A stretch of 64,000 nt of DNA. Origin: a virus. The position numbers and the translations under genes were made by a program. The notes under the pieces are model-generated. The model was not told the origin of the DNA. It did no database searches and was given only the letters and a program-made list of their open reading frames with translations. Within the stretch, counting starts at the first letter, position 1. The number at the start of each line of letters is the position of its first letter. Shown here piece by piece: positions 2,288-9,446 of this stretch. The stretch lies in IMG/VR virus record IMGVR_UViG_3300010371_000036, positions 8,289-72,288 of that record; one strand, 5' to 3'.

Positions 2288-2866
2288 TCAGCGGGCGCGG
2301 CGGGGCGGGGGCGGGAGCTCGTCGCCGTAGTGCGTCCACGCCGGGTCCGGCGTCCCGTCCGGGAGGAGCCGCCGGCGCCGCGCGTGCATCTCCGCGTAGG
2401 GGCCGAAGCAGAGGTCCTCGACGAGGTCATAGAACGCGTCCGGCTTCCCGGAGTGCTCGCCCACCGGCGCGTCGAACGTGTCGAACGTGCTCCGGACCGA
2501 GAGCGACCGGAGGACCGGGCGGCCGCGCCGGAAGACGAGGCAGGTCTCGTGCTCGTTCCGCGCCGTCCGCCCCATCCCGAAGTGCCGGTTCCCGTTCTTC
2601 GTCCGCTTCACCCAGACGAGCTCCGCGCCCGTGTACTCGAAGCCCCAGGCCCGGCCGACCGCGAACGCCTCCTCCGCCATCGCGCCGACGCGCCAGAGGA
2701 AGAGGTGGCAGTCCTCGTGGAGGCGCGGGAGCTTCTCGGCGCAGATCGCCTCGATGCTCGCCGCCGTGGTCTTGTAGATCTTCCGGACGCCCCGGCGCGG
2801 CCCCGGGAGCTGGTCCCGGAACGGCCAGGCCGGGTCGCAAACAAGCACGCGCGGTAGGTCCCTCAC
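2288..2866 (-). CDS. MT-A70-family DNA methyltransferase
   Basis: DPAW (DPPW-like), HLFLW, AWGFEY, LVWVK, GMG, HETCL, HSGKPD, EMHAR motifs. GTG start at 2866 overlaps the upstream TGA. Confidence 0.8.
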   Translation of the reverse strand: MRDLPRVLVCDPAWPFRDQLPGPRRGVRKIYKTTAASIEAICAEKLPRLHEDCHLFLWRVGAMAEEAFAVGRAWGFEYTGAELVWVKRTKNGNRHFGMGRTARNEHETCLVFRRGRPVLRSLSVRSTFDTFDAPVGEHSGKPDAFYDLVEDLCFGPYAEMHARRRRLLPDGTPDPAWTHYGDELPPPPRRAR

Positions 2867-3783
2867 TTCGCACCTCTCAGCTTCCAGGTCGAGTGCTCGC
2901 GCCACCCGTCGTGCTCGAGGACGCCGGCGCGCCGGAGCTCGAGGAGGCGCCCGTCGAGCCGCGAGCGGGGGATCCCGAGCGCCGCGCGGATCGCCGCGCT
3001 CCCGGAGGAGCCGGCGCCGCGGAGGTACTCGACGATCCGCGCCTTCTCCGCCTCGATCCCCGCCCGGCGCCCGGCCCGGGTGTAGGACGGAACCCGGGTT
3101 CCGTCCGCGGGGCGGACCCTCGGCATCCGCGCCGTCTCCCGCGCGTCGACGAGCGCCTGAGCCTCCCGGAGCGGGACGCCCTCGAGGTAGAGCCCCGCGA
3201 CCTCCTCGGCCCAGGCGTCGGCCTCCGCGTCGAACTCCTCGCCGAGGAAGTCGCTCGCCCGCCCCTCGCTCTTCCGCGAGTCCTCCCCGCCGCCGTTCTC
3301 CCCCTCCGCCTCCGCGAAGGAGGGGGCCTCGTTCATCCGCTCGCGGAGGTAGTCGACGAACGCCTCCCGCTCGCCGGGCGTCAGCTTCCGGAGGAGCCGC
3401 TCGAGGGCGCGGACCTCGAGCTGTCGGACCCGCTCGCGGCTCATGTTCATCAGGCCGGCGATCTCCTCGAGCGCCGCGCCGCCCCGGTCCGCGACGTCGA
3501 GCGCGCACGACTCGGGCATGTCCTCGACCTCGCGCGACGGGAAGTTCCAGACGATCGTGTCGCCGCGCACCCCCGCGACGTCGAGGTAGAGGTGGTAGCG
3601 ACACGAGACCATGGGGCACGGCCGGCTCGTCCCCCGACAGTCCTCGCGGCCGGCGGGGAGCGCGTGGTCCGTCCCGTCCCGGAGGACGGGGAGACGCCGG
3701 CGACTCCGCCAGACCCCGGAGTCGTCCCCCCGGACCCTCTCGCGCCGCGGGGCGCCCGCGCGGGTCCTCCTCGCGGCGCTCAC
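2863..3783 (-). CDS. Cys-rich sigma70 region-4 HTH protein with C-terminal winged HTH
   Basis: EDC..SRPCPMVSCRYHLYLDV...NFP...ESCALDVADRGG.LEEIAGLMNMSRERVRQLE. Likely GTG start at 3783 (GTGA overlap). Confidence 0.7.
   Translation of the reverse strand: MSAARRTRAGAPRRERVRGDDSGVWRSRRRLPVLRDGTDHALPAGREDCRGTSRPCPMVSCRYHLYLDVAGVRGDTIVWNFPSREVEDMPESCALDVADRGGAALEEIAGLMNMSRERVRQLEVRALERLLRKLTPGEREAFVDYLRERMNEAPSFAEAEGENGGGEDSRKSEGRASDFLGEEFDAEADAWAEEVAGLYLEGVPLREAQALVDARETARMPRVRPADGTRVPSYTRAGRRAGIEAEKARIVEYLRGAGSSGSAAIRAALGIPRSRLDGRLLELRRAGVLEHDGWREHSTWKLRGAK
3085..3106. repeat. 22-bp palindrome GGACGGAACCCGGGTTCCGTCC, copy 1 of 13 (intragenic)
   Basis: Perfect inverted repeat; read as DGTRVPS in 2863..3783. 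Confidence 0.95.
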
Positions 3784-4130
3784 TCCGACCGGCTCACGGT
3801 CGGGACGCAGTACCCCTCGCCCCCGAAGTCGTCCGCCCGGCCGCTCGGGAGGACGAGCTTCACGGCCGCGCCGCGCGGGTCGCTGTTGAACTTCACGGTT
3901 ACGGGCTTGTCGCGCAGCGTGAAACGAACCCGTCGCTGGAGCCAGATGACCCGGGCCTGGTGCTCCCGCATGTCGACGATCGGCTCGTTGCACTCCCGGA
4001 GGTAGAGCGCGTAGAGCTCCGTCGAGAGGTCAATGAGCCGGCGCGCCAGAACGCCCACCTTCTCCGGGCTCTTCTCGATCTCCGCTAGGACGGCCCCGAA
4101 CTCTGCCACCTCGCTCACCTTGATCGGCAT
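3780..4130 (-). CDS. hypothetical protein
   Basis: Clean ORF with CGCGGCA motif 14 nt upstream. Confidence 0.65.
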   Translation of the reverse strand: MPIKVSEVAEFGAVLAEIEKSPEKVGVLARRLIDLSTELYALYLRECNEPIVDMREHQARVIWLQRRVRFTLRDKPVTVKFNSDPRGAAVKLVLPSGRADDFGGEGYCVPTVSRSE

Positions 4131-4151
4131 CGTGCTGACCTAGTTGCCGCG

Positions 4152-4877
4152 CTAGTCACGAATGGCGACCCACCCGGCGAAGTTCATCCAGCGCCAGAAG
4201 CAGTCGACGGCGCGGAACCCCGCCTGCCGGAGGATGTCCTCGTTCCAGCGAGCGGTCACCGGGACGAGGACCCCCTCGAGCGCGCGCCGCTTGCGCTCGA
4301 TCTCCTCGCTGCCGTACCCGTTCGCACCCTTCAGCTCGTGGTAGCGCCCGACCATGAGGGAGTCGACGTCCGCCGACTCCCCGAGCACCTTCTCGACGAG
4401 CACGAACACGCCACCCGGCGCGAGGCGCTGGTAGACGTCCCTCACGATCCCCTGGCGATAGTTGATCGGCACGAACTGGAGCGTGAGCACCGAGAGCACC
4501 GCGGCGCACCCTGAAGACCACGCCCGGTCCGCCGGCTCGCGGAGATCCCAGTCGCGGACGAGGACGTTCTGGCGACCCTCGAAGCGACGCCGGAGAACGT
4601 CGAGCATCGGTGGCGATCGCTCGATCGCCCAGAACTGCCGCACCGCCGACGACCTCTCGACGAGGGCCGCGATCGCGTCCCCGCGCGAGCTCCCGAGGTC
4701 GACGACGTCGCCGGGCAGCACGTCGAGGAACCCCATCGTGATGTCCTCGACGGACCGGCGCATGACGCCGTACTGCGGGATCGACCGCTCGAGCATATCC
4801 GGGAAGACGTCGACGACCCCGGCGTCGAACTCCCACTTCTCACCGGACGGGACGTGCTTGACGCTTGATTCACTCAT
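4152..4877 (-). CDS. cmoA: carboxy-S-adenosyl-L-methionine synthase CmoA
   Basis: WEFDAGVVDVFPDMLERSIPQY, DLGSSRG, TLQF, LAPGG.FVLVEK, HELKGANGY..EEIERKR.ALE, AGF, NF match E. coli CmoA ([22 protein letters not shown] ... [22 protein letters not shown]) as I recall it. ATG 4877 overlaps the asnB-like stop (ATGA). Confidence 0.92.
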   Translation of the reverse strand: MSESSVKHVPSGEKWEFDAGVVDVFPDMLERSIPQYGVMRRSVEDITMGFLDVLPGDVVDLGSSRGDAIAALVERSSAVRQFWAIERSPPMLDVLRRRFEGRQNVLVRDWDLREPADRAWSSGCAAVLSVLTLQFVPINYRQGIVRDVYQRLAPGGVFVLVEKVLGESADVDSLMVGRYHELKGANGYGSEEIERKRRALEGVLVPVTARWNEDILRQAGFRAVDCFWRWMNFAGWVAIRD

Positions 4878-6274
4878 GGCTTCCAACCTCCGAACCTGTC
4901 CTGGTGAGCACGCGCGTAGAGGGCGCGGGGATCGGCGATCTGCGACTCGATCGCGCGCTTGAGGCCCATCCCGTCCTGGAACGCGACCTTCGGTCGGCGC
5001 AAGACGCTCTCCGGCAGGAGCCCGCGCATCGCGTCCCGGAGGACCGCCTTCGTCACGCTCCCGCGCTGCACGAGCGGGCGCTCAAACGAGAGCACCCGCT
5101 CGACGAGCGCCGGGTTCAAGAACGGCAGGCGGCACTCGACCGAGCTCCGCATGAAGACCTTGTTCGCCCGCGGGAAGTTCTTGCGCGACTGACCGAGGAA
5201 GGACTCCTTCCGGAAGCCGTGCCAGCCGCGCGTCTGGATCCCGTGGTAGGCGAACCCGTACGACCCGAAGAGCTCGTCGGCACCCTCCCCGGAGAACGTC
5301 ACCTTGAAGCCGTCCGCGCTCATGCGCTCCGCGAGCTTCATGCACGCCCAGGCGATCTCCACCTGCGACTTGAACGGCATCTCGATCGCGTCGACGACGC
5401 GCGCGAGGTCCTCCGCGCTCGGGCACTCGACCGGGACCTCGACCAGCCGGACGCCGAGCATCTCCGCCGTCTCGCGCGCGCCCCGCAGGTCCCGGGACTT
5501 CGCGTCGAAGACTGCCGTATACGCGACGAGATCCGGCACGTGCGGCCGGAGCAGCGCGGCGATCGCCCCGGAGTCGACCCCGCCCGAGAGCAGCGCGCAC
5601 ACCGGGACGTCGGCGATCCTCCGCTCCTCGACGCTCGCGCGGAGGAGCCCCAGGAGCTCCTCCGCGGCCTCCTCCGGCTCCGCCGCCTTCGGCAGCGCGG
5701 GGACGTCGACCCAGCGCCTCGAGCGCACGCGACGACCGTCCGACTCGACGATCTCCCCCGGCCCGACGTCCACGATCCGCGTCGGGTCCGCGCCGAGGGC
5801 GAGGAGGGCCCGCGCCTCGCTCGCGAAGTAGAGCGGCGCCTGCGCCGCGTAGTGGAGCGGGACCTCGCCGAAGCGGTCGCGCGCCAGCCGGACCCACTCC
5901 CCGTCGCCGCTCGTCCAGGCGATCGCGAACATCCCGTTGAACTTCGGGAGCGCAGCGTCACCCCAGCGCGCGAGGGCGGCCGCGACGACCTCCGTGTCCC
6001 CCGGAGTCCGGAACTCCTCACCGAGCGCCGTGAGCTCAGCGCGGAGCTCCCGGTAATTCCAGAGCTCCCCGTTGTACGCGAGCGTGAGCTGCCCCCGCTT
6101 GAACGGCTGCGCGGAGCGATCGTCGAGGTCGATGATCGCGAGACGGGCGTGACCGAGCACCACCGCGCCGTCGGTGACGACCGCCTGCGCGTCCGGGCCT
6201 CGGTGCCGGATCGTCTGGAGGGCGCGCTCCACGGCGGACGCGGCGCCGCCGACGGTCCCGACGATCCCGCACAT
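4874..6274 (-). CDS. asnB: asparagine-synthetase-B-like glutamine amidotransferase / ATP-dependent amide ligase
   Basis: N-terminal MCGIVG (Ntn Cys), HRGPD, GHARLAIID, QPF, YNGELWN, DTEV, NGMFA, RDRFG; synthetase LLSGGVDS and SGEGADELFG. ATG 6274 overlaps the MTase stop (TGATG). Confidence 0.92.
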   Translation of the reverse strand: MCGIVGTVGGAASAVERALQTIRHRGPDAQAVVTDGAVVLGHARLAIIDLDDRSAQPFKRGQLTLAYNGELWNYRELRAELTALGEEFRTPGDTEVVAAALARWGDAALPKFNGMFAIAWTSGDGEWVRLARDRFGEVPLHYAAQAPLYFASEARALLALGADPTRIVDVGPGEIVESDGRRVRSRRWVDVPALPKAAEPEEAAEELLGLLRASVEERRIADVPVCALLSGGVDSGAIAALLRPHVPDLVAYTAVFDAKSRDLRGARETAEMLGVRLVEVPVECPSAEDLARVVDAIEMPFKSQVEIAWACMKLAERMSADGFKVTFSGEGADELFGSYGFAYHGIQTRGWHGFRKESFLGQSRKNFPRANKVFMRSSVECRLPFLNPALVERVLSFERPLVQRGSVTKAVLRDAMRGLLPESVLRRPKVAFQDGMGLKRAIESQIADPRALYARAHQDRFGGWKP

Positions 6275-7635
6275 CAGCGCGGGACCTTGAAGATCTTGTC
6301 TCGGATCGCCGCCGCGACCGCGCGCATCATCACCGGTGGGACCGCACGGCCGCACCGCTCCCACTGCTGCGCGTACGTCCCCGCCAGGATGAAGTCGTCC
6401 GGGAAGGAGCAGATCCGCCGGAGCTCGGCGATCGTGAACTTCCGGATCTCCGTCGGGTGCTCGGCCGACGCCTCTTCCTCGACCTTGTAGTGGCACGAGT
6501 TGAGGGAATCGACGCCGACCGTGATCGCCGGGCACGGACGGTCCGTGATCGTCACGTCTTGCGCGAATGCCCCAGACGTATCGTGCGCGTCGCGCACGAT
6601 ACGCGCCTCCACCGTCGAGGGCGGACTCCGACCGTTCCCCGAACTCGGCCCCGCACCGATCGTCTGCGACGGGTTCGTGCTCGAATGCCAGGCGCTCGTC
6701 CCGTACGGCGAGTTCGCCATCTGCCGGGTCACGTGCGGCAGCGCGTCGCGGATCGAGTACCTGTACGGGAGCGGCTCCGGGTGCACCGGGTCGAGCCCGA
6801 GGTCCGTGCGCACGCCGACGAAGATGACGCGCTGCCGGCACTGCGGCACCCCGAGCCACTGCGCGTCGAGCAGGCGCGCCTTGACGCGGTACCCGCACGC
6901 CTCGAGCGCCGCGTGAATCTCCTTGAAGTACCCCTTCGCGACCCCGCGCACGAGACCCGCGACGTTCTCCGCGACGAAGACCTTCGGCTGGAGACCCTTC
7001 AGGATCCGCGCGTACTCGAAGAAGAGGTCGTCGGTCCGCTGCTGCGTGTCCGAGTACGTCTTCTCCTTGCCCCAGTGCTTCTCCCGCTTGCCGGCCGTCG
7101 AGAAGCTCGCGCACGGCGGGGAACCGTCGAGCACGTCGAGCTCTCCCACCTCGAGACCCGTCGCCGCGAGGATGTCCTCCGCCGTCACCGTGCGAATGTC
7201 ACGCCCGTCGAGGATGGTCGACGGGAAGTTCGCGGCGTACGTCTCGCGCGCCATCTCGACGAACTCGCTCGCCCAGACGACCTTCATCCCGGCCATCGCG
7301 TAGCCGAGGCTCGAGCCGCCCCCTCCAGAGAAGAGGCTAACGACCTTGAGACCCGTCGGCGGGAGCGCTCGGATCTCCTCCATCGACGGGACTCGATACG
7401 GCGGCTTCTCCCGCGGCACGACACCCGGCGACGAGGCCACCGTAGAGGTCTCGGACAGCGCCGGCTTCGACGCGCTCGACGATGACGCGCTCTCGCTCAG
7501 GGTCGTAGACCGCGACCCCGAGCGCCGCTTTGCGGTGCGCGATGGCGATCGACTTCCGGAGCCGGATGCGGAGGAGGGAGACGATCGCCGCGTCGATCGC
7601 GTCGAGGTCACGGCGGGCTTCTTCGACTTGGGCAT
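6274..7635 (-). CDS. C5-cytosine DNA methyltransferase-family enzyme, predicted carboxymethyltransferase (motif X GRAVPP)
   Basis: Motif I SLFSGGGG, IV GSPPCASFS, VI ENVAG, VIII PQCRQR, IX RKFTIAELRRICSFPDDF, X CGRAVPP. Start is uncertain (ATG 7635, or ATG 7383 with a nearby GTG). Confidence 0.9.
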   Translation of the reverse strand: MPKSKKPAVTSTRSTRRSSPSSASGSGSRSPSRTAKRRSGSRSTTLSESASSSSASKPALSETSTVASSPGVVPREKPPYRVPSMEEIRALPPTGLKVVSLFSGGGGSSLGYAMAGMKVVWASEFVEMARETYAANFPSTILDGRDIRTVTAEDILAATGLEVGELDVLDGSPPCASFSTAGKREKHWGKEKTYSDTQQRTDDLFFEYARILKGLQPKVFVAENVAGLVRGVAKGYFKEIHAALEACGYRVKARLLDAQWLGVPQCRQRVIFVGVRTDLGLDPVHPEPLPYRYSIRDALPHVTRQMANSPYGTSAWHSSTNPSQTIGAGPSSGNGRSPPSTVEARIVRDAHDTSGAFAQDVTITDRPCPAITVGVDSLNSCHYKVEEEASAEHPTEIRKFTIAELRRICSFPDDFILAGTYAQQWERCGRAVPPVMMRAVAAAIRDKIFKVPR

Positions 7636-7660
7636 CGAGGATCAGAACTGGAAGTGGCAT
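7337..7660 (-). CDS. chorismate mutase (AroQ/type II)
   Basis: VEEARRDLDAIDAAIVSLLRIRLRKSIAIAHRKAALGVAVYDPERERVIVERV fits the AroQ consensus R..ID.ID..I..LL..R......I...K....P.D..RE. Codon third positions are GC-rich in this frame. Confidence 0.8.
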   Translation of the reverse strand: MPLPVLILDAQVEEARRDLDAIDAAIVSLLRIRLRKSIAIAHRKAALGVAVYDPERERVIVERVEAGAVRDLYGGLVAGCRAAGEAAVSSPVDGGDPSAPADGSQGR

Positions 7661-8172
7661 CGGGGGCACTCCCGCGCGAGGTGCATCCCGCCCGGCTCGA
7701 GGTTCTTGAACTCCGGCGGGGCGCTCGGGGGCTCGATGCGCGCCAGGAGCAAGTCGAGGTCCTTGTCCTCGTAGTTCGTCGCGAGGAGGTCCCCGTCGTC
7801 GCGGAGCGCCTTGAGCAGCGACGCGAGCTGCACGTCGTCGTAACTCGCGAGGTCGCTCGTCCGGTTGTCGAGCGCCAAGATCTTCCGGGCCTGGCGCTCG
7901 GTGAGCGAGTGGAGCTCGACGGGGATCTTCTTCATCCCGAGCTCCTTCGCCGCCTTCCAGCGGTGGGAGCCGACGAGGATCTGATTCGTCTCCTGCCAGA
8001 CGAACACCCGCCCGTAGAACCCGACCTCCTCGATGCTCCGCTTGATCGCCGGGACGTTCCCGCGCCGGGCGTTCTCCGGGTGGGGGGCGATTGCGTCGAT
8101 CGCGACGACCTTCTTCACCCCCTCGAGGATCTGCGGGATAGGCGCCTTCGTCTTCTTCTCAGCTCTCGCCAT
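7642..8172 (-). CDS. ParB/Srx-like N-terminal domain protein with C-terminal CxxC
   Basis: IAPHPENAR, IKRSIEEVGF, ILVGSHRWKAAKELG, LDNRTSDL; ends ECPRCHFQF. This type commonly accompanies phage DNA-modification genes. Confidence 0.8.
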   Translation of the reverse strand: MARAEKKTKAPIPQILEGVKKVVAIDAIAPHPENARRGNVPAIKRSIEEVGFYGRVFVWQETNQILVGSHRWKAAKELGMKKIPVELHSLTERQARKILALDNRTSDLASYDDVQLASLLKALRDDGDLLATNYEDKDLDLLLARIEPPSAPPEFKNLEPGGMHLARECPRCHFQF

Positions 8173-8211
8173 GTGATTACGCTTCAGTCTGCTGCGCGGA
8201 TACCCCCGTCG

Positions 8212-8784
8212 TCAACGTCCGAGGTAGAGGGCCGTCGCCCCGACCTCGCTCAGGCCGAAGCAGGCGATCGCCACCGCGTCGCACTCGTCGCTGTTGAACC
8301 GCGCCCCCGCGGCCCCGAACGCGAGCTGGACGGCGAGCTTCCGATCCGTCCCCCGGGGGATGACCCCGAGGAGCTGCTTCCGGACCATCGCCTCGGCGAC
8401 CGGGTAGAGCGTGACGCCGTGCCGGCGCCGGAGCTCGAGGCGGATCGCCATCCCGAGCTCCGGGAGCTGGTGGGCGCCCGCCCCTCCGGCGTTGAAGCCG
8501 TAGTTCTCGACGAACCCGGCGACGCGACCGCCGCCCGGCTCGACCCGGAGCTGGTCGAGGAAGTCCCCGACGGCGCCGGCGATCGACTCGATCCGCGCAC
8601 ACCGCGCATCCTCGTACTCGAGGACCGAGAGCGCCTTCCGGTCCGGCGGCTTCGTCGGGTAGGACATCGTCCGGACCGAGGACCAGTCCCCGAGGAGCCA
8701 GTGGGGAGGGAGGAGCGCCGCCGCCGTGCGCGTCAGCGACGCGTCGACGCCGAGCACCCAGGGGAACCTCTCGCGGCGGCTCAC
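8212..8784 (-). CDS. RuvC-like Holliday junction resolvase
   Basis: VLGVDASLT.T, VENY, K..G, DECDAVAIA acidic catalytic pattern. Confidence 0.7.
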   Translation of the reverse strand: MSRRERFPWVLGVDASLTRTAAALLPPHWLLGDWSSVRTMSYPTKPPDRKALSVLEYEDARCARIESIAGAVGDFLDQLRVEPGGGRVAGFVENYGFNAGGAGAHQLPELGMAIRLELRRRHGVTLYPVAEAMVRKQLLGVIPRGTDRKLAVQLAFGAAGARFNSDECDAVAIACFGLSEVGATALYLGR

Positions 8785-9209
8785 GGCTCGTACTTCGGGA
8801 GCTTCGGCGCGCCCGGGTCATAGGGCCCGCCCTTCGTCTCGAAGAAGAGCGTCGGCGCCTCGTCGTTCCGCGCGTAGCGGATGTAGGAGAGGAGCTCCCT
8901 CATCAGGTCGGAGCCGAGGACGGCCTGGAGCGCGATCCGCTCGATGGGGGAGACCGCCCGCTCGAGCGTCACGACGACGTGCTGCCGGCCCGGCTTCCCG
9001 CTCGGTGAGGGCCTCACCACGTAGGTGAGCGGGACGTGCTCCCGGAGCTTCGCGACGCGCTCGAGGAAGAACTCCCACGCCTCCGCGGAATCGATGTCGA
9101 GAAAGAGCTCGCGGGCGCGGGGCTTCACGACGACGCGGCCCTTCTTCTCGGCGTCGCTCTCCGCCTTCTCGAGGCGGTCGTAGCCACTCGTCGCTAGGTC
9201 GCTCGCCAT
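8781..9209 (-). CDS. hypothetical protein
   Basis: Clean coupled ORF (LFLDID...HVVV motif). Confidence 0.65.
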   Translation of the reverse strand: MASDLATSGYDRLEKAESDAEKKGRVVVKPRARELFLDIDSAEAWEFFLERVAKLREHVPLTYVVRPSPSGKPGRQHVVVTLERAVSPIERIALQAVLGSDLMRELLSYIRYARNDEAPTLFFETKGGPYDPGAPKLPKYEP

Positions 9210-9218
9210 GGCGCCCGC

Positions 9219-9446
9219 CTACGCCGCGCCCGGGGCGGTCTCGGCCCGGAGCTGGAAGCGCCAGCCCTCGGCCGTCAGCGTGTCCTCGAGCGCCTTCCGG
9301 AGGCGGAGGGCCTCGCGGATCGTCGCCGGCTGCGTCAGCGGCGCCCAGTAGAACTTCCCCGCCTCGTCGGCGTCGGCGCTCTCCCTCACGAGTTCGACGT
9401 CGACGACCCAGCGCTTCTTCGGCGGCTCCTGCTTCCTCTTCGACAT
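9219..9446 (-). CDS. hypothetical protein
   Basis: CGCGGCA motif 11 nt upstream of ATG. Confidence 0.6.
   Translation of the reverse strand: MSKRKQEPPKKRWVVDVELVRESADADEAGKFYWAPLTQPATIREALRLRKALEDTLTAEGWRFQLRAETAPGAA

Follow-up and report, generated by a model that had tools for sequence, protein, structure and literature searches.

Carboxymethylation of cytosine in viral DNA has been demonstrated experimentally for Synechococcus phage S-B43 (Yang et al., Nat Commun 2025, PMC12783734). As reported there, CmoA forms carboxy-S-adenosylmethionine (carboxy-SAM or Cx-SAM) from S-adenosylmethionine (SAM) and prephenate; CmoX, a homologue of cytosine C5-methyltransferases (C5-MTases), produces 5-carboxymethylcytosine (5cxmC) at GC sites; and CmoY, an asparagine-synthetase homologue, ligates glycine to the carboxyl group of 5cxmC. 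Here, we describe a cluster of five overlapping genes at positions 4152–8172 of a 64,000-nucleotide (nt) stretch of viral DNA (hereafter ‘the window’; bases 8289–72288 of the 72,288-base IMG/VR virus record IMGVR_UViG_3300010371_000036), in which predicted genes of this type are joined by an open reading frame (ORF) for an AroQ-type chorismate mutase (CM), which would supply the prephenate.

Several further points of the published work bear on this cluster. The signatures of CmoX are an SPPC motif and an arginine, Arg350, that replaces the usual asparagine and makes contact with the carboxyl group. Cx-SAM is the only donor accepted by wild-type SpCmoX. A survey yielded 5,615 CmoX, 4,257 CmoA, 2,251 ligases, and 1,660 ParBc neighbours. 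The second-largest ligase cluster (representative A0A7T0Q3R0) has a glutamine-hydrolysing domain; glutamine-derived ammonia was predicted to be its amine, and no soluble enzyme was obtained. Prephenate availability was named as a point needing study (PMC12783734).

The combination of CmoA, CmoX, and a ligase, the association with ParB, and the class of glutamine-amidase ligases, with ammonia as their predicted amine, are thus already published, and what the window adds to the main text of Yang et al. (supplements aside) is the CM only: neither ‘chorismate’ nor ‘mutase’ occurs in that main text (PMC12783734). A literature search found no publication joining chorismate mutase, CmoA, and phage, and none on 5-carbamoylmethylcytosine; for CmoX or CmoY, Yang et al. 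was the only relevant publication among the matches listed. A preliminary description of the window, made from its letters alone, had mentioned a recent report of natural phage carboxymethylcytosine, correctly as it turns out, and had supposed the version with CM and a glutamine amidotransferase to be the part most likely undescribed. That holds for the CM as far as the main text goes, but not for the glutamine-amidase ligases, which are already there (PMC12783734).

The cluster resembles that of S-B43 in combining a CmoA homologue, a C5-MTase homologue with SPPC and Arg signatures, and an ATP-dependent ligase of the AsnB superfamily in one coupled cluster without CmoB, and its CmoX has a ParB-domain neighbour, as in many contigs of PMC12783734. 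It differs in gene order (CmoA-CmoY-CmoX in S-B43), in its ligase (the glycine-adding SpCmoY of S-B43 has 271 amino acids [aa], no glutaminase domain, and only 22% identity to the window protein), and in its CM, no such gene being annotated in the S-B43 cmo neighbourhood. A second comparison is with genes gp122–gp125 of Streptomyces phage TurkishDelight (NC_073473), which have the order ParB-CmoX-CmoY(Gln)-CmoA. CmoY is 50% and CmoX 48.6% identical between the two, and at the DNA level identity is 67% across 54% of the region, whereas CmoA is only 28% identical (tblastn) and the 93.6-kb TurkishDelight genome has no match to the chorismate mutase family CM_2 (PF01817).

Predicted pathway

In the route that we propose, the CM would convert host chorismate to prephenate, and CmoA would combine prephenate with SAM to give carboxy-SAM. 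CmoX would then place the carboxymethyl group on C5 of cytosines in phage DNA, and the AsnB-like CmoY would adenylate the carboxylate and convert it to an amide, using ammonia set free from glutamine. This would yield 5-carbamoylmethylcytosine, a bulky, uncharged base expected to hinder restriction. The ParB-like protein would act as a conserved DNA-binding partner, and the phage CM, presumably unregulated, would raise the prephenate supply at peak demand. To the five-gene route as a whole—CM-fed carboxymethylation by CmoA and CmoX, followed by amidation by CmoY—we assign a probability of roughly 0.65.

The same sequence of steps, from chorismate through prephenate, Cx-SAM, and 5-carboxymethylcytosine to the amide, had been put forward in the preliminary description. 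It is consistent with all sequence tests run, and its core corresponds to the experimentally shown system; its predicted carbamoylmethyl product coincides with the ammonia prediction already made for this ligase class (PMC12783734).

Given the CmoA reaction as published and the way AsnB works, each carboxymethyl group would cost one prephenate and one SAM, and with CmoY also one ATP and one glutamine. At one prephenate per modified base, a cytosine-rich genome would draw heavily on a small, feedback-controlled pool, and we infer from its sequence signatures that the CM may serve as a prephenate booster. The window contains 45,361 G:C pairs and 7,339 GC dinucleotides; purely by way of illustration, about one-third of cytosines would be targets if its CmoX shared the S-B43 motif. 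A more far-reaching proposal—that the CM is carried because prephenate limits carboxy-SAM, that the end product is 5-carbamoylmethylcytosine and new to DNA, and that this is the first viral shikimate-pathway enzyme feeding a hypermodification cofactor—is tentative, and we rate it at a little under even odds.

Evidence from the cluster

The CM ORF scores above the Pfam cut-off for CM_2, and all twelve of its NCBIfam matches are to chorismate mutase families; its best PDB match is 1YBZ of P. furiosus (5e-4). For an alignment of five phage CMs, the window protein was combined with P0002, the single relative found by a word-based protein search (52% identity; 93 aa; longest contig, 3,132 bases), and with the CMs of three viral loci described below (L076, L077, and L021). 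Eight residues are invariant in all five (R16, D20, D23, R33, D53, R56, E57, and R63), K44 is kept in four, and the catalytic residues in helices 1 and 2 line up with their counterparts in 1YBZ. The conserved phage residues match the active-site set of the E. coli enzyme, which we take to be R11', R28, K39, D48, R51, and E52. Like stand-alone AroQ CMs (PF01817; 1YBZ and E. coli 1ECM), the window CM would be a three-helix protein of about 90 residues, predicted to form an intertwined dimer, and it keeps the catalytic Arg/Lys/Asp/Arg/Glu set of helices 1 and 2. It differs from them in being encoded by a phage within a DNA-modification operon rather than in an amino-acid pathway.

Structural modelling points the same way. 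AlphaFold2 placed helices at residues 3–47, 54–65, and 68–89 (mean confidence score pLDDT, 79) with a low-confidence tail, and we read the last 18 residues (90–107), which are predicted to be disordered, as probable read-through over the cmoX start. In a Foldseek search of the PDB with this model, the top 14 matches were all chorismate mutases, none of them at E ≤ 0.001. A homodimer model reached an interface score (ipSAE) of 0.84 against 0.00 for the best control, with partner pLDDT of at least 87 and at least 91% of contacts common to the runs. Of 30 solved pairs, 20 attained the mark used, as did 1 of 23 single chains; since AroQ dimers are already among solved structures, the pass may reflect likeness to them and is no proof that the window CM dimerises. 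Taken together, these observations make an active enzyme that supplies prephenate somewhat the likelier case.

The CM is not confined to the window. From 136 viral loci encoding CmoA relatives, the best 80 were taken and their whole IMG/VR records searched with PF01817; CM_2 was present in three, always within about 3 kb of cmoA. One of these, L076 (an 18-kb fragment), has the window’s five-gene order, ParB-CM-CmoX-CmoY(Gln)-CmoA, with about 50% identity per protein; L077 (a complete 105-kb genome) has ParB-CM-CmoX-CmoA; and L021 (a complete 59.7-kb genome) has ParB-CmoX-CmoA-CM. In L077, the CM covers nearly the full profile (positions 1–79 of 80; 51.5 bits). Locus G + C content (GC) in the four CM-bearing viruses ranges from 0.57 to 0.71, so their hosts probably differ. 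The CM is a rare accessory, and wherever it recurs it lies within the cmo cluster. Co-occurrence of the four enzyme families in other genomes, which the preliminary description had proposed as a check, is seen in L076, where all five genes recur; the CM is rare in the CmoA-led set and was not found in the ligase-led records considered below.

The transferase matches TIGR00675 as well as PF00145. Its best PDB match is SpCmoX (8YF3), followed by M.HaeIII (1.3e-24). In the alignment with 8YF3, its SPPC motif coincides with that of SpCmoX, and its G-R-A-V-P-P with the G-R-M-V-P-P that holds R350, where M.HaeIII has G-N-A-V-P. The arginine is widespread in the related loci: 49 of 61 CmoX matches have G-R-x-V-P-P, none has Asn there, and the remaining 12 are unmatched or outside the pattern. 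Both SPPC and Arg occur in the CmoX of all four CM-bearing viruses. The central, target-recognition part of the window protein (query residues 197–308) was unaligned to 8YF3, and the DNA motif may for that reason differ from GC.

For CmoA, the best PDB matches are E. coli CmoA (4GEK), 4IWN, and H. influenzae YecO (1IM8); identity to SpCmoA is 26%. The assignment of these two window genes as CmoA and CmoX, judged from their sequences, is very probably correct, and from the arginine signature we infer that the window CmoX uses carboxy-SAM. The statement in the preliminary description that the window has neither tRNA nor CmoB was upheld, with no tRNA found in the 64-kb window and no match to the CmoB family PF08003 in the 72,288-base record. 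No second C5-MTase was found in the record either, leaving the window transferase as the sole one.

The ligase begins M-C-G-I-V-G, with Cys directly after Met, and contains GATase_6 (1.6e-35), GATase_7, and Asn_synthase (6.1e-48) domains. It aligns with E. coli AsnB (1CT9; 5.3e-44) over the glutaminase motifs, the S-G-G-x-D-S PP-loop, and the S-G-E-G-x-D-E motif. With A0A7T0Q3R0, which an exact look-up identified as TurkishDelight gp124, it shares 50% identity over 466 aa (4e-148), above the network threshold of about 30% identity used by Yang et al. By these sequence measures, the window ligase is a member of the glutamine-amidase CmoY cluster (TurkishDelight type).

Glutamine-type CmoY homologues with 50–56% identity were also seen at L090 6001–7380 (a complete 115-kb virus with a locus GC of 0.42) and at L098 1313–2701, and tblastn gave no CmoX or CmoA match within the fetched flanks of either gene. 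In these two, the ligase may serve another acid handle.

Alternative explanations

Several observations weigh against the route as drawn. The best NCBIfam match of the window CmoA, TIGR00740 (CmoA), scores 137.4 bits, below its equivalog cut-off of 193.3. The absences of tRNA, CmoB, and a second C5-MTase, and of SAM synthetase (MetK) and DAHP synthase, neither of which was found in the record, are provisional, as CheckV puts completeness of the record at only about 45%. The remaining points concern the CM. Its CM_2 match spans only profile positions 2–60 of 80, and helix 3, which lies outside the match, is divergent, with no Ser/Gln pair, as expected of AroQ enzymes, seen at the aligned place and with a Glu one position off. 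All twelve NCBIfam chorismate mutase scores are under their cut-offs. In the non-overlapping part of the gene (7420–7660), G + C at third codon positions (GC3) is 0.79, against 0.92–0.95 in the neighbours; together with an 83-nt overlap with cmoX, this may mean that the CM is recent or under weak selection, and recent transfer of the gene is possible. GC3 is lower in the L076 CM too (0.45 against 0.56–0.71), and not in those of L077 and L021. Nor does the CM accompany most such clusters: it is missing from TurkishDelight, from all 50 CmoY-led records searched (of 63 ligase-found loci), and from L088, the locus with the closest CmoY relative, where ParB abuts CmoX. The CM is dispensable for most such phages.

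These points bear above all on the possibility that the CM-like gene encodes no working chorismate mutase, being instead a decaying or captured fragment, or an AroQ-fold protein with another job (pericyclic, regulatory, or scaffolding). The truncated profile match, the sub-threshold family scores, the lack of a fold match at E ≤ 0.001, the atypical GC3 and overlap, and the patchy distribution would all fit such a gene. We nevertheless regard it as unlikely, for the ORF is intact, the residues invariant across five divergent homologues include the catalytic set of helices 1 and 2, the gene has been kept in four viruses across the stated GC range and always inside the cmo cluster, and the L077 protein matches nearly the whole profile.

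Further searches for relatives of the CM returned little. A profile built from the five CMs, whose matches to those five are circular, detected no additional copy in 151 loci, and pattern-based searches of viral contigs with the CMs of the window, P0002, L076, and L077 gave nothing or the query’s own record only; the five-CM alignment has no stretch conserved enough for a pattern search. A metagenome scan yielded four homologues of 30–42% identity (L154–L157) with no cmo gene in their flanks, and these are probably ordinary cellular chorismate mutases, which say nothing about where the phage gene came from. Whether the CM was acquired once was examined on a CmoA tree with 82 rows, 4 of them CM-bearing, and with 30 of 60 inner branches open. 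The distribution of the CM takes four changes, at least three of them forced by well-supported branches, and all 500 label shuffles did no worse (mean 3.9). The CM-bearing rows are scattered on this poorly resolved tree, which leaves gains versus losses undecided.

The second alternative accepts the modification and questions its final step: CmoY might attach something other than plain ammonia, such as another amine or a modified glutamine-derived nucleophile, so that the final base would not be 5-carbamoylmethylcytosine. Three facts lend it some weight, the first of which also counts against the route that we favour: the product of glutamine-type CmoY is so far a prediction only (PMC12783734), CmoY of S-B43 uses glycine (PMC12783734), and the second-best PDB relative of the window ligase is a hydroxyamidotransferase (7YLZ; 1.1e-29). 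Set against these are a full N-terminal nucleophile (Ntn) glutaminase domain, Cys at position 2, and conserved AsnB glutamine-site motifs, which are the hallmark of ammonia channelling; moreover, a scan of neighbouring genes revealed none that would provide a different donor. We accordingly consider a different nucleophile improbable, to much the same degree as a non-functional CM, while ammonia itself is, on the strength of these motifs, the moderately favoured amine of the window ligase.

Two other readings are far less probable. The CM and asparagine-synthase-like genes could be auxiliary metabolic genes of the ordinary kind, providing aromatic amino acids and asparagine and unrelated to DNA modification, and a rumen virome survey does list viral chorismate mutase and asparagine synthase in a metabolic sense (PMC10465536); we give this little credence, as both genes sit, translationally coupled, between ParB, CmoX, and CmoA, their five-gene order recurs in L076, the ligase is 50% identical to the representative of a published CmoY class, and tblastn with two CM queries found no match in 50,697 phage records. 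That the transferase simply makes 5-methylcytosine from SAM, with CmoA serving something else, is very improbable despite its membership of PF00145 and TIGR00675, given that it has Arg in place of the conserved Asn, as does SpCmoX, whose wild type takes Cx-SAM only (PMC12783734), that 61 of 81 loci have CmoX coupled to CmoA, and that no other Cx-SAM user (CmoB) was found in the record.

Implications

With CM-fed carboxymethylation and amidation as the preferred reading, the operon bears on two points left open in 2025, namely the prephenate constraint and the product of the glutamine-type ligases (PMC12783734). A phage CM wired into a cmo cluster would be genetic evidence that prephenate can be limiting, and it offers a simple handle to raise yields of carboxy-SAM and 5cxmC in heterologous hosts, which could be useful for epigenomic labelling based on carboxymethylcytosine. 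The predicted neutral amide base would extend the known phage DNA modifications. More broadly, virome calls of ‘chorismate mutase’, ‘asparagine synthase’, and ‘DNMT’ may denote DNA-modification modules, not amino-acid metabolism; the rumen virome survey places DNMT1, chorismate mutase, and asparagine synthase from viruses among auxiliary genes of metabolism or defence, and these may be unrecognised parts of cmo-type clusters (PMC10465536).

Gene layout and genomic surroundings

The five overlapping minus-strand genes (Table 1) are all present where the preliminary description had placed them, and so are the two stop/start junctions that it had reported: a TGATG, in which the stop at 6276–6274 overlaps the ATG at 6274–6272, and an ATGA, in which the ATG at 4877–4875 overlaps the stop at 4876–4874. 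The ParB and CM genes overlap by 19 nt.

Table 1. The five genes of the cmo cluster in the window, with the predicted product of each.
Feature	Positions	Strand	Supporting matches
ParB N-terminal-domain protein, 176 aa	7642-8172	-	PF02195, 27.6 bits (cut-off 26.3); PHROG 723, 1e-31
AroQ-type chorismate mutase (CM) ORF, 107 aa	7337-7660 (ATG at 7660)	-	CM_2, 43.2 bits (cut-off 27)
CmoX-type cytosine C5-carboxymethyltransferase, predicted, 381 aa	6274-7419 (GTG 7419)	-	PF00145, 1.2e-56; 8YF3, 2.9e-68
AsnB-like glutamine-hydrolysing amide ligase (CmoY, TurkishDelight type), predicted, 466 aa	4874-6274	-	GATase_6/7 and Asn_synthase domains
CmoA-type carboxy-SAM synthase, predicted, 241 aa	4152-4877	-	4GEK, 2.8e-29; PHROG 4752, 8.6e-67

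The start of cmoX is most likely the GTG at 7419, judging from its relatives, which begin M-(N)-K-P-P-Y: in L076, L077, L021, and TurkishDelight, the homologue in each case starts close to a conserved K-P-P-Y...V-P-x-M stretch. It is this start that gives the overlap of 83 nt with the CM ORF; the corresponding overlap, between CM stop and cmoX ATG, is just 4 nt in L076 and L077. Two other starts were rejected. A long ORF of 453 aa (6274–7635; ATG 7635) has a Ser/Arg-rich stretch as its first 72 residues, and the overlapping frame holds the Pfam CM match; an ATG at 7383 disagrees with the beginning shared by the relatives.

By sequence, the ParB-like protein is the usual upstream partner of CmoX, a ParB homologue adjoining CmoX in 20 of 81 CmoA-led loci (tblastn). 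The ParB-like partners end in C-P-x-C followed by G/H and an aromatic residue (window 7642–7680, L021 6880–6928, L076 4220–4268, and L077 6630–6681), which suggests a small metal-binding or DNA-contacting tail. In L021, an ORF at 4981–6378, immediately upstream of the stand-alone ParB-CmoX pair, fuses a ParB_N domain to an amino-methyltransferase, supporting a functional link of ParB domains with DNA transferases.

The window has a GC of 71%, and nearly all of its likely genes lie on the minus strand. Its source is, by its gene content, a large tailed phage of high GC, since it encodes a DNA polymerase, several helicases, a DnaB-like helicase, and a baseplate wedge protein. A promoter and terminator scan of positions 3600–9300 gave no promoter-like site and one terminator-like site, none bounding the five genes, which form a translationally coupled module within a longer co-directional array of replication genes. 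The high GC and the Streptomyces phage relative are a hint, and only that, of an actinobacterial host; a genome scan with CmoX found one 10-kb contig of a Verrucomicrobia bin, without CM, which gives no host.

Directly downstream of cmoA, two minus-strand ORFs at 2288–3100 and 2863–3993 comprise one resembling MT-A70-type N6-adenine methyltransferases (Pfam, 3.7e-9) and one for a sigma-70 region 4 protein, and to judge from the MT-A70-type ORF, the phage DNA probably bears a second modification, directed at adenine. A gene for a RuvC-like Holliday junction resolvase (PHROG 159; 9.3e-13), at 8212–8784 on the minus strand, immediately precedes the ParB-like gene on its upstream side.

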